From: a bacterium
GTDB lineage: Bacteria > UBA8248
Reading direction: 5' to 3'
NCBI GenBank assembly: GCA_965213685.1
Contig: CBDBZY010000018.1
Location: forward strand, 32,001-96,000
DNA: 64,000 nucleotides
This document shows, piece by piece, positions 41,336 through 48,567 of the stretch (positions are counted from its first letter, which is position 1; the number at the start of each line of letters is the position of its first letter). The position numbers and the translations under genes were made by a program. The notes under the pieces are model-generated. The model was given only the letters and a program-made list of their open reading frames with translations. It was not told the origin of the DNA and did not search any database.

Positions 41336-44300
41336 TCACAATTTGCCCTCCCCCTCCACCTCCACCTCCACCATTTCCTCCTCTTTAATCTTCCTCCATG
41401 TAATTCCTCCCTGCTGTAATGTCCTTACAGCTACAATATTTTCTACTTGCTGGGCAAGATCATTCATTTCAGCATCCTTTAAAAGGTCAATGAGTGTGGC
41501 CCAGGTGGCTGGCTGCCTACCCCTCCCCTCCAGCCACTCTCTCATCATCTGGGTACAGCAGTCTATGGGATTAAAGGGATGTTCTTTGGCAATGCAGTTC
41601 AGGGTCTGTCCAGTTTCATCAAAGTCTAAATGAATTCCAAACCTATTCCAGTTTGGAGCAATCGATTTGATTATCTCTACTCTCTTTCCAGAGGGAGACT
41701 TGAAGAGTGTCAGTTGCAAGAGACTTGGCTTCTGATCCATTTGTTTACCTGTGTGTTTAAGTGTGTGTGTGTGTGTGTGTGTGTGTGTGTGTGTGTGTGT
41801 GTGTGTGTGTGTGCATATATTGATAGTACAGTCATTGCACAGATTAAGTGGCTTGCTTAGATGTTTAAAATACATGTTTTAGCTTCACAATATTTGAAGT
41901 ATTGATGATTGCACTGCATTGTATGTTATACAGTGGAACCCTGCTTAATGGATACCCCTCAATGGCAGACACCCATTATATAACAGACAATCATAAAAGT
42001 CCACATCATTTCTTCATAGACGTTAGAACCTCTGCATAGCAGCTGCATAGCAGACACCCCACTACCTTATATAATGGACAGTAATCCATCCCCAATTGTG
42101 ACACTCCCAATAGTACAACCCCCCCCCCCCCCCCCCACACACACACACACACACAATGGACAGTTTAGCCACACCCATCCAATAACTGTACTGTCAACCC
42201 CCTTTTGCTGGCCTCCCAAAATAGAGACATTGCCATTATTCAGACAAACGTGCAAGGTCCCAAACGCATGCCCACATAGAGTTGTACAAATCAGATATGG
42301 GCCCCTCAATGTTTCATTTATAGCACAGATTAGGCCTTGAGAGATTATGCCCAAATTTGGGCCTATTTTTCTTTTCTTTTATGTTCCCATTCTTTGCCTA
42401 TTTTTCTTTTCTATTATTAATTTTTTTCTTTGGCATGTACCCATTTTTCTTGAAGTGTTCAATAAAAAGTGTACAATAAAAAACCAAACATGATTACAAA
42501 ACCTTTCTATAATTGTATTAGAGCATGACAGATAACTGTAATAGTCCTCAAATGAAGATTCCTGCTGAGAATTGAAAGAATTAAACTCCAGTATCAAAGT
42601 CGCTACTGTGGCTGCTCTCTATGTCTTCGCAACTAGTACTTGGGTAGCCGCTTGTTTCTTTGGTATTCCTACGTCATCAGCCTCCACCATTTTTACACGA
42701 GGTAATGACATTTGCGCATGCGCGTGATTGAATTGTTGCCTATTTTTCCAGCATAATTCTCAATGTTCACGTACACCTATTTTTCTCAAAATTATGCTAG
42801 CATAATCTGCCAAGGCCTGTACAATGTACTGTAAAATACTATTCGCAGATACAACGGACAACAAAGCTATGTAGCTGGACTGTACCTACATCAAAAGTCG
42901 CTCAGCTTGGCAAGTATTGCATTCAAGCTCTTGGTAGGTCAAAAGTCACAGTTTTTCCTAGCTGTGGTGTCCAGTACATGTGGTGGCCTCTCATGAATGA
43001 ATGAATTTCCAGCAAAATCCTACATACAAACTGACATGTCGATTTGACCTCAGCCTATGAGTGTGTATAGCCTGCTAGCATACCATAAGCTACTAGCTAT
43101 ACCAGGTACATTGTACATGCGTGCGCAATCATGCATGTGCGCACGTGAACCCCTGAGTTATGGACGCTTATCTATAACAGACAGTGGTGTCTGGTCTAGA
43201 GGGTTTCCACTGTACCTGGCTCTCTTGAGCTCTAGTGGTATGCCTTTACATACTCTAAAAAAGAAGTTAGAATAAATTGTGGGTGTACATAAATGGCATA
43301 TAACACCTGTAGGTGACATTACAATAATATGTGCCCGCTAAATATGTGGCAAAACTCTGATTCTGTGCATAAAGGGGCATGAAGGTTTAGGTATAGCCCA
43401 TCATTCAGCTCACCAGCCACTTTCATAAAACTCTTTTATTGAAACGATATGAAGAAAAAGCGTCTTTTTCAAAAGATACAATGGTTTCTAGTACAGTCAT
43501 AAGCCTGTTTTAGAAGTTATCCTTAGAAAAGAATCTTTACGATAGCTATTGGTTTGGGGGTACACATATCATAATTGCATGAATTCTGTAATTCAAACAA
43601 ACATGGAAAGTCCTGATGAAAAATACAGAGCAACTAGAATAATTATAAAAAAGATCTAGCTTGTCTTGTGTAGCCACATAAAAAATGAATCAGGCTTTGC
43701 AAGAAATATAACTATCTTCTTAACTGCGCATAAACTGAAACCATGGCAAGTGCCTTTAGGCCAGAAGGTTAGTTATTGTCATCATCAATACTGAACAAAG
43801 GGGCAGCATGTGTGATGCTGATACTTAGTCACATGTACTATTGTGAAAGATGTAGGGAGGAAAAGCAAGAGAAGAAAGGGGAGGGAGAACAGATGATAGG
43901 CAGAATTAGAGATATATATAACTATGGGATTGGCATCAGCATATTATGCTAGCATAATAGTGACCATTATCACCTAGTTTTGGACCCAGCATAATTTTGA
44001 GCACAATTGTGTCATTTTTGGCCAATTTCATAGTCACGTGTTGTACACGAGGCAGAAATGTCAGCCAGCAAGGAGAGTGTGCCAGCTTCATCCTCGGCAG
44101 TGCTGTCCACCAGCTCTAGTGCTAGCTCAAGTGAGTCTTTGTCAAGTGGCAATGAGGAAGTGGTCAGGTTCTGCCAGAGGTTTGGACCCCAACAAGACAG
44201 CTAACTTCAAGATTATATACAGTCGTCTCTTATAAGTTCGGACCCCAACAAGACAGTTCACTTCAAGATTATATTCAAGATTATATACAGTCATCTCTTA

Positions 44301-47300: not shown

Positions 47301-48567
47301 ATCACCTCCTTCACCACCGTGGGGAAGTAGAACATTAGGTTGACAGCATGAAAGAACTGCAAGGCTACTTCCATGGCTTCGTCCGATTCGAACATCAGCT
47401 GCTGAGCGATGACCCAGCACTTTGCTCTGCTCACAATTCTGCCTGCTCTCCGCAGTTCCACCTCCAGCAGGTAGTAACCCAGGGGATACTTGAGTTGTAT
47501 GCTCTGTCCACAGCTTCCAATCATCTGCAGCAGCTCTTCTGCCATTGGGTCTCGTGGGACTCCAGGACCAGACCCAGCATTGTTAACAGCATGGATGATC
47601 TCATTGTGGGAATACTTAATGAGATATTTCGTGAATCTTTCCAGCATTGTTGCCAGCTTCCCATTCTTGTCTTCAAGTGATTCACCTGATGCAAGCAATT
47701 TATCCTTGAATGTGCCGATCACCATGCTCTTTGGGTACTCTGGCTGCTTCTCAATAAAGGACATTGGTAGCTGTGAGTGCTGACACTGTGTCATTTGCAT
47801 GCATCGCATTATAAGCTCTGCATTTGTCAGAGTGAAGTGGCCAAGACTGTAGTTGGCGCCATTTGGTGCAAAATAGTCCACAGCTGGACGGTCATCTAGC
47901 TTATCAGAAAGCTTGAACAATTGTAGTCGAAGAAATGCATTCTTCATCAGAATAGGGATCATCTCCATGAATTGTGGTTGGCCACCGCAGTCCACAAACA
48001 GGAGGAAGTGTGTCTTCAGTACCTCTCTGGACCCTTTCAACTTGGTCATCTTTCGGGCGATCTCAGCTGTGCGTGGGAGAATATCTGCCCTTGAAGCTGC
48101 AGAGGGTGTGGCCCTAATTTCAGATGTGGCAGATACTGCAGTAACTTGTGTACTGCTGACAGCCTCCCCTTCTTCCTTTGGCAGCTGCTGAAGCTTGGCT
48201 TGTGCTTCTTCACTGCTGGACTCAGCCTGGCCTATTTGCTGGCTGCTGACTTGTACTACTGAAGTGCTTGGCTCTTCTTCTGTGATGGAGACACCGGCTG
48301 AAAGATTCTCAGCTATCATGTCCACCATATCTGAAGGACTTATTTGCCGACACTTAAGGTGCTGTCCATCCACCTTTTCCATGATGAACCTCTTGGCCTG
48401 TTCCATGCAGGCTGTGCTGGTACGAGCAAGTGGTAGGGTCTCGTTGCATAGGAAATGCCCCAGAGATGTCTTCCCCACACCAGGAGCACCGCTAACAGCG
48501 CATATGGTGTAGTCTGCCAAAACATGACCCTTCTGTAGTTGTCGCAGTAATTCCTGAGTGAATATGT
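41336..48567 (-). CDS. Roc-like GTPase / COR-like / ZU5 / UPA-like / death-domain protein (start exon not identified)
   Basis: Phase-consistent exons 48567-46486, 46345-45824, 45731-45652, 45593-45441, 45383-45182, 44728-44672 and 41748-41336. Motifs: G1 GAPGVGKT, G3 DCGGQ, G4 GTFKD; ZU5 DGGKISW..GVYIDIPPGAV...ASPVF...HFC; death domain IAPNWNRFGIHL...MMREWLEG..PATWATLIDLL. Confidence 0.85.
41931..43212. mobile_element. Tc1/mariner (Tigger-like) non-autonomous element with a nested MITE at ~42331-42819
   Basis: TA-CAGTGGAACCCT ... AGGGTTTCCACTG-TA. Nested TIRs AGGCCTTG..AGATTATGC / GCATAATCT..CAAGGCCT. A related 3' half lies at ~59140-59311. Confidence 0.7.
44765..45043. repeat. (GA)n microsatellite, ~280 bp, intronic
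   Basis: Direct observation. Confidence 0.95.

Follow-up and report, generated by a model that had tools for sequence, protein, structure and literature searches.

In this work we analyzed a stretch of 64,000 nucleotides (hereafter the window), i.e., bases 32001-96000 of the 813-kb contig C18 (GenBank accession No. CBDBZY010000018.1) of an assembly labelled prokaryotic (GCA_965213685.1). Its minus strand carries, at 48567..41336, a gene which encodes a Roc-COR GTPase of the ROCO type, followed by a ZU5 domain with an HFC motif, a beta-rich region resembling UPA and a C-terminal death domain (DD). The reading that we favour, with some but not high confidence, is that of a ROCO protein whose UPA-like-DD fragment would be released after autocleavage of the ZU5 domain, by analogy with PIDD1, NLRP1, and CARD8.

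Gene model and the 5' end

The gene model consists of six exons (A to F; coordinates in Table 1), and the joined frame stays open to the TGA at 41336-41338, so that the spliced product comprises 1149 full codons and one split codon at the 5' end (at least 1150 residues). All five introns (140, 92, 58, 57, and 3433 nt) are of the GT..AG type, their phases fit and the number of internal stops is zero, which bears out the phase-consistent exons without a lesion described in an earlier, sequence-only reading of this DNA. The ends proposed there coincide with the first acceptor (48567) and with the stop codon (41336); the seven exons that it counted have to be corrected to the six found in the interval. 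Exon A is part of a 702-codon open frame of the minus strand (46463..48571). The gene body is real and well preserved, and the greater part of a single animal gene, most likely that of a demosponge host, is contained in the interval. Contigs from four runs covered introns and repeats alike and showed no joint at the predicted introns between exons A and E; these contigs are uninformative on both splicing and expression.

Exon A opens at a phase-1 acceptor and the first in-frame ATG lies after the P-loop; therefore, at least one 5' exon is missing from the model. In the listed part of the paralog alignment, which extends over 900 bp ahead of exon A, no ATG followed by a donor of matching phase proved to be conserved, and one candidate, a 10-nt first exon (ATG, 7 nt, and a phase-1 GT donor, 48731-48722), was rejected, its ATG being absent in 11/11 aligned paralogs. 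A short ATGAAGCGCG... block (about 49090-49110, minus strand) upstream of exon A is conserved in both paralog subfamilies; it meets a stop within 11-19 codons and may be an upstream open reading frame or part of a 5' untranslated exon.

The phase-1 acceptor and the lack of an ATG before the P-loop also speak for a larger gene, in which further 5' exons, situated within the repeat-rich upstream DNA or past it, would add repeats, a NACHT domain or more Roc-COR, and the architecture described here would make up at most the C-terminal two thirds. Named relatives do carry 500-2300 residues ahead of the unit, e.g., proteins of Halichondria (3231-3341 aa) and Ephydatia (1029 and 1070 aa), and the NACHT-containing protein P0001. 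Against such an extension, no Pfam domain was found in the minus-strand open reading frames (ORFs) of at least 90 aa at 48.6-64 kb, the N-terminal parts of six relatives had no tblastn match in the window, the paralogs cease to be homologous some 800 bp ahead of exon A, and in P0019 and P0023 a Met precedes the P-loop by about 19 residues, as would fit an N-terminus of very small size. Taken together, we regard a larger gene as unlikely, though as an alternative that deserves serious attention.

The Roc-COR GTPase

Judged by its motifs and predicted structure, exon A is a Roc-COR tandem of the ROCO type, with G1, G3, and G4 motifs and COR directly after Roc. All motifs quoted in the sequence-only reading, i.e., GAPGVGKT, DCGGQ, GTFKD, CxC..H..C, and the HFC of the ZU5 domain, were recovered; the conservation of those in exon A, given in Table 1, refers to an alignment of 35 relatives which reaches down to 20% identity. 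When the profile of these relatives was used to search PDB, LRRK2 was the top match (E 6.6e-5), with the P-loop, the GTFKD/GTHLD and the COR stretches being collinear, and Rab and Roc chains were matched both by the profile search and by fold.

The AlphaFold2 (AF2) model of the exon A ORF (predicted local distance difference test, pLDDT, 83.5; predicted template modelling score 0.83) is disordered only at residues 95-161 and in the last 12 residues, the latter lying beyond the splice donor. The first of these segments is an insert of about 70 residues within Roc, rich in S, E, and Q. The Foldseek search with this model ranked LRRK1, LRRK2, and the Roco proteins of C. tepidum and M. barkeri at the top (E from 1.3e-13 to 2.8e-6), with values of 1.3e-13 for LRRK1, 3.5e-13 for LRRK2, and 9.7e-12 for C. 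tepidum Roco. The Cys/His cluster at the end of COR-B may bind Zn. It is also worth mentioning that P0001 (1733 aa) combines NACHT (E 1e-22) and this Roc-COR-like unit (32% identity) in one frame, being an NLR-ROCO hybrid.

The ZU5 domain and its HFC motif

Exon B encodes a ZU5 domain (PF00791; 41.2 bits against a Pfam cut-off of 21, E 2e-10). The sequence LKHFC is found near its C-terminal edge, and HFC is present in 10/10 paralogs of the HFC type. Four other paralogs (c3, c7, c9, and c14) were at first thought to be devoid of ZU5, until a diverged homologous exon was found in them, in which HFS is aligned on HFC (hhalign 98.9%, E 2e-17). In an alignment of 53 relatives, H is present in 49 and F in 50, while the third position is C in 45 and S in 5.

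According to PMC3210808, the self-cleavage site of PIDD is HF/S, immediately behind each ZU5, that of CARD8 and NLRP1 is SF/S, and the nucleophile of this class of autoproteolysis can be Ser, Thr or Cys; UNC5b is cited there as the template. As the HFC occupies the position of the PIDD-type HFS, is aligned with the HFS of the paralogs and is kept as H-F-[C/S] in relatives, the self-cleavage proposed in the sequence-only reading can reasonably be inferred, and this ZU5 domain is probably self-cleaving.

A different explanation accepts the same architecture and treats it as an uncut, auto-inhibited ZU5-(UPA-like)-DD scaffold, as in ankyrins and UNC5, with the DD exposed by opening. To our knowledge, the ZU5-UPA-DD of UNC5 (UNC5B) and ankyrins forms a closed, uncleaved supramodule, which is not autoproteolytic and has no HF[S/C]. 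Moreover, the best PDB match of the ZU5 profile is the non-cleaving ZU5 of ZO-1 (E 7.2e-6), and the HFC is followed by a variable polar linker. What this explanation does not account for is the third position of the motif, which is C or S in 50/53 relatives and in 14/14 paralogs while the flanks vary; a position at which C and S replace each other has the signature of a nucleophile, not that of a residue with a structural task. We consider an uncut scaffold rather unlikely.

The same type of ZU5 is fused to various heads. Of its 150 nearest representatives, 119 match Pfam ZU5, and other heads among the 150 are ankyrin repeats (17), TRAF-type zinc fingers (2), AIG1 (2), and a kinase (1); TRIM-like and GIMAP-like heads are also fused to this ZU5 type. 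COR was found in the same open frame in none of these 150 representatives, which are not a census of whole proteins because they are mostly single-exon gene calls.

The beta-rich region between ZU5 and the death domain

The ZU5 domain and the DD are separated by about 146 residues (exons C-E), whose position and length fit UPA. These exons are open and conserved in 10/10 paralogs, with indels in whole codons only, and show strand-like alternating patterns; a Y-S-x-x-L-Y strand motif is conserved and, preceded by a variable linker of charged residues, is found again in distant relatives. Exons C-E are conserved coding sequence, UPA-like by place and beta pattern. In the ZU5-UPA-death domain module proposed earlier, the ZU5 and Death parts stand above their Pfam cut-offs, and UPA was matched neither in Pfam nor in PDB, where profile searches with exons D and E returned chance-level rows only (E at least 0.23). 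In the ESM Atlas, exon E met Ig-like clusters at 0.89 (the mark being 0.9) and exon D had no match. Structure prediction was attempted for the four exon products as separate chains of a complex (score 0.01, no usable model) and, with AF2, for a paralog open frame reading through the D-E intron (pLDDT 34, unusable).

The death domain and the unity of the gene

The DD of exon F (PF00531) scored 34 bits against a Pfam cut-off of 22.6 (E 3.3e-8), and the contig holds 12 Pfam Death matches in total. In loci with a substantial exon A, a ZU5-type exon lies downstream in 14/14 cases and a Pfam Death match in 12/14 (c6 and c10 being without it).

It may be asked whether two neighbouring genes, one encoding Roc-COR and the other ZU5-DD, were wrongly joined. 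The gap between exons A and B is, however, only 140 nt long, with matching phases; the frame of exon A meets no stop before its donor and ends 8 codons past it, and an ATG is lacking around the beginning of the ZU5 exon. Furthermore, the order of exons is the same in all 14 loci, and in more distant relatives the Roc-COR exon is followed by a DD exon at a distance of 0.2-1.5 kb. We therefore consider the chance of two separate genes to be very nearly negligible.

Tandem array, selection and apparent exchange of tails

On C18 there are 15 loci with exon A, distributed from 7.9 kb to 763 kb at a spacing of about 50 kb, all on the minus strand. Exon A is full-length in 12 copies, of which 11 are open and one is frameshifted (1-bp deletion); in the three remaining loci it is interrupted or truncated. 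AG/GT was kept in the copies of exon A wherever the alignment reached the splice sites. The tails are of three types: HFC-ZU5 with a DD of type a, HFC-ZU5 with a DD of type b, and HFS-ZU5 with a DD of type a.

Ratios of non-synonymous to synonymous divergence (dN/dS), calculated against the paralogs, were 0.15-0.31 for exon A (32-68 non-synonymous and 29-100 synonymous changes), 0.20-0.34 for ZU5, 0.20-0.47 for exons C-E, and 0.17-0.29 for the DD exon. Values of 0.15-0.47 in every exon show that the exons evolved as coding sequence, and these comparisons indicate that all of them are under purifying selection. This bears on the possibility that the gene is a silent or decaying copy, a member of a recently amplified array that is intact only because it is young. 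The start codon that was not found, the damage to exon A in 3/15 loci, the frameshift in 1/12 full-length copies and the density of mobile elements in the surrounding DNA fit such decay; the low dN/dS of exon A and of the other exons (0.17-0.47), together with the 11/12 full-length copies of exon A that are open with AG/GT kept, do not, and we find a decaying copy improbable.

In comparison with copy c10, dS is 0.07 for exon A, 0.77 for ZU5, and 1.35 for exons C-E, and this unevenness suggests that heads and tails were exchanged between copies, i.e., that tail cassettes may have moved among members of the array. The cassette of exons B-E is of phase 1 at both ends, and could therefore be inserted or lost without a break of the frame.

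Distant paralogs (27-30% identity) located on contig C16 (28.8-32, 48.4-51.7, and 70.9-74 kb) consist of Roc-COR and a DD exon 0.35-0.5 kb downstream, with no ZU5, and further ones of the same kind (27-30%) were found on C4 and C57. In other assemblies we identified 41 related loci (21-29% identity), several of which are short and some probably the same sequence assembled twice; this ZU5 was present in 0/41 of them and a downstream DD on the same strand in 11/41, ten of these within 1.5 kb. Eleven tandem Roc-COR relatives (L023-L033; 22-26% identity) with a 40-50-kb spacing had no detectable ZU5, and the two of these loci that were scanned with Pfam had no DD. On this comparison of sequences, it looks as if Roc-COR-DD were the older form, into which the ZU5 cassette was inserted later.

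Proposed mechanism

The protein is arranged as Roc, COR-A, and COR-B, then ZU5 with HFC, the beta-rich segment at the place of UPA, and the DD. In the mechanism that we favour, the Cys of HFC would attack the preceding peptide bond (N-S acyl shift), and the two products of the cut, Roc-COR-ZU5 and (UPA-like)-DD, would remain associated. A change in Roc-COR, be it in nucleotide state, dimerisation or stability, would free the DD fragment, which could then oligomerise by death-fold contacts and recruit death-fold adaptors or caspases. Purely by analogy, the GTP state might conceivably be coupled to the release of the fragment, and an immune or cell-death role of the gene may be supposed on the same grounds.

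Several points weigh against this reading. At the 5' end, a start codon and a 5' exon were sought upstream and neither was identified, and the tblastn search with the N-terminal parts of six relatives covered the whole window and gave no match outside exon A. As regards the GTPase, Pfam Roc has no match in exon A and Pfam COR-A reaches 17.7 bits, below its cut-off of 35.3. Near the predicted cut, a polar linker of about 22 residues, the length of which varies among copies, separates HFC from the next conserved strand, and the HFS-type copies have no polar linker after the motif; we also know of no demonstration of Cys-dependent cleavage by a ZU5 domain. As for the middle region, neither Pfam UPA (PF17217; exon pieces, six-frame) nor Pfam FIIND (PF13553; six-frame genome scan) had a match at the locus or its paralogs at E up to 10, and Pfam gave no UPA match in relatives either; the distribution of the region over three short exons makes these scans weak. 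Finally, protein P0141 (271 aa) passes from an HFC-type ZU5 straight to a stretch resembling a death domain and has no C-E region, and the middle region is therefore not obligatory.

A more far-reaching and, in our opinion, doubtful extension of the autocleavage reading is that the array serves immunity or allorecognition as a combinatorial locus. In it, a GTP-switched ROCO sensor would hold a self-cleaved UPA-like-DD "warhead", with Cys instead of Ser as the nucleophile, and the copies would swap sensor exons and tail cassettes (HFC- or HFS-type ZU5 and two types of DD) by recombination, generating diversity. Such a locus would be the GTPase-based counterpart of the NLRP1/CARD8 mechanism.

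Origin of the contig and neighbourhood of the gene

The G+C content of C18 is 45% and that of the large contigs C64, C41, C16, C51, and C7 is 44-53%, whereas most contigs of the assembly have 63-69%. The window contains (CA)n and (GA)n microsatellites, short GT-AG introns, ORFs of LINE-type (long interspersed nuclear element) reverse transcriptase and endonuclease and a DDE_Tnp_4/Myb element (Pfam), and the named relatives of the gene come only from the demosponges Halichondria panicea and Ephydatia muelleri. Given the low G+C content, the microsatellites, the LINE ORFs, the GT-AG introns and the demosponge relatives, C18 is most likely sponge-like host DNA that was binned with a bacterial symbiont. 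Contigs C64, C41, C16, C51, and C7 carry animal-type genes and are host DNA in the same bacterial bin. As a practical point, about 800 kb of host DNA resides inside a metagenome-assembled genome rated 94% complete and 3.7% contaminated. A second host-like contig (970 kb, 40% G+C), which harbours loci L023-L033, was noticed in a bacterial-labelled assembly.

Outside the gene, a Pfam scan of 92 ORFs of at least 90 aa revealed only pieces of mobile elements, of a peptidase M16 and of BPL_N (Table 1). The M16 and biotin-protein-ligase ORFs may be real genes as well, a point to be set against the earlier claim that the gene described here is the only intact one. Just upstream of it, the summed contig depth in four runs rises to 8e5 at 49306-54440, versus 1e2-1e4 over the gene, and this peak marks high-copy repeats. 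The bin depth of the pair of tRNA-Ala(AGC)-like sequences exceeds the depth of the gene by a factor of several hundred to several thousand; these are likely heads of tRNA-derived short interspersed nuclear elements. The ARAGORN call of a tRNA-Pyl at 50107-50178 is probably spurious.

Table 1. Features of the ROCO-type gene and of its surroundings (positions in the window)
Feature	Position	Strand	Remarks
Exon A: Roc, COR-A, COR-B; phase-1 acceptor to phase-1 donor	46486..48567	-	
P-loop (G1) GAPGVGKT	48467..48490	-	G28, G31, G33, K34 nearly invariant in 35 relatives
G3 / switch II DCGGQ	47978..47992	-	D194, G196, G197, Q198 invariant in 35 relatives
G4-like GTFKD, aligned with VGTHLD of LRRK2 Roc	47702..47716	-	T287, D290 invariant in 35 relatives
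C-x-C..H..C cluster (CLC..H..C), end of COR-B	46565..46630	-	C648, H656, C669 in at least 90% of sequences
Exon B: ZU5, then short polar linker; phase 1 at both ends	45824..46345	-	
HFC motif, predicted autoproteolytic site, predicted cut between F and C	45891..45899	-	Site rule of PMC3210808
Exon C: start of the beta-rich UPA-like region, 26 residues	45652..45731	-	
Exon D: 51 residues, UPA-like region	45441..45593	-	
Exon E: 67 residues, UPA-like region, ends in phase 1	45182..45383	-	
Exon F: linker, death domain (Pfam match 41435-41671), acidic tail, TGA stop	41336..41748	-	
Upstream block common to paralogs; presumed promoter / 5' exon region	48568..49371	-	
Mobile-element ORFs (GIY-YIG; LINE-like reverse transcriptase/endonuclease; DDE_Tnp_4 and Myb/SANT)	2-382, 13325-19534 (+), 21393-22744 (-), 31369-32328		Pfam
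Peptidase M16 / PqqF-like gene pieces	27329-34480	+	Pfam
356-codon ORF with biotin-protein-ligase N-terminal domain (BPL_N)	37714-38781	-	Pfam
Two tRNA-Ala(AGC)-like sequences	49447-49522, 49750-49825	-	ARAGORN

Relation to known systems and significance

Among ROCO proteins (DAPK1, LRRK1/2, MFHAS1, and bacterial Roco), the gene shares the direct succession of Roc and COR, and its predicted fold superposes on residues 1328-1869 of LRRK2 and on C. tepidum RocCOR. In DAPK1 the death domain lies C-terminal of COR; the same holds for the DD of this gene, and its distant paralogs are plain Roc-COR-DD. Unlike in ROCO proteins, no kinase, leucine-rich repeat (LRR) or ankyrin part was found in the gene, about 70 disordered residues are inserted in Roc, a conserved Cys/His cluster closes COR-B, and a ZU5 and beta-rich cassette is placed between COR and the DD; the sequence identity to LRRK2 is 14-16%.

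With PIDD1 (LRR-ZU5-ZU5-UPA-DD) the gene has in common the succession of ZU5, spacer and DD, the H-F-nucleophile at the C-terminal edge of ZU5, and an N-terminal regulatory module, although of a different kind, the GTPase standing in place of LRR. It differs in having one ZU5 instead of two, a putative Cys nucleophile (Ser in four paralogs) and a spacer that is UPA-like only. NLRP1 and CARD8, with their FIIND (ZU5-UPA-CARD), likewise join an NTPase or sensor, a self-cleaving ZU5 (predicted in the case of our gene) and a death-fold C-terminal fragment. Their site is SF/S and their end a CARD, whereas the gene has HFC, a DD and no Pfam FIIND match, and a Roc-COR GTPase replaces NACHT-LRR. The order of ZU5, about 140 residues and DD is also that of UNC5 and ankyrins, which, in contrast, are membrane-receptor or cytoskeleton adaptors.

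The claim that no characterised protein has this order held in the literature searched, where we found no description of Roc-COR with ZU5. The accessible text of PMC8195603, which mentions ROCO, death domain and ZU5, does not describe the domain order of the gene, and in that of PMC12909245, a paper on sponge NLRs, COR and ZU5 are listed solely in combination with NACHT; the supplementary architecture tables of PMC12909245 and PMC8195603 may hold the combination. All parts of the protein are of known kinds, and it is the combination of Roc-COR, ZU5, and DD that is new, in a lineage known for module shuffling.

If the proposed reading is true, early-branching animals would have used a ROCO GTPase as the framework of a death-fold sensor that cleaves itself, which would link two groups studied separately, i.e., LRRK2/DAPK1 and PIDD1/NLRP1/CARD8. 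It would also provide a natural system for asking how the nucleotide state or dimerisation of Roc-COR can control the release of a fragment, and whether Cys can act as the nucleophile in a ZU5 domain. The family, with its 15 tandem loci, phase-1 ZU5 cassette, apparent exchange of tails and the same ZU5 type on other heads (ankyrin, TRAF, TRIM-like, kinase, and GIMAP-like), illustrates how immune-type repertoires of sponges diversify.

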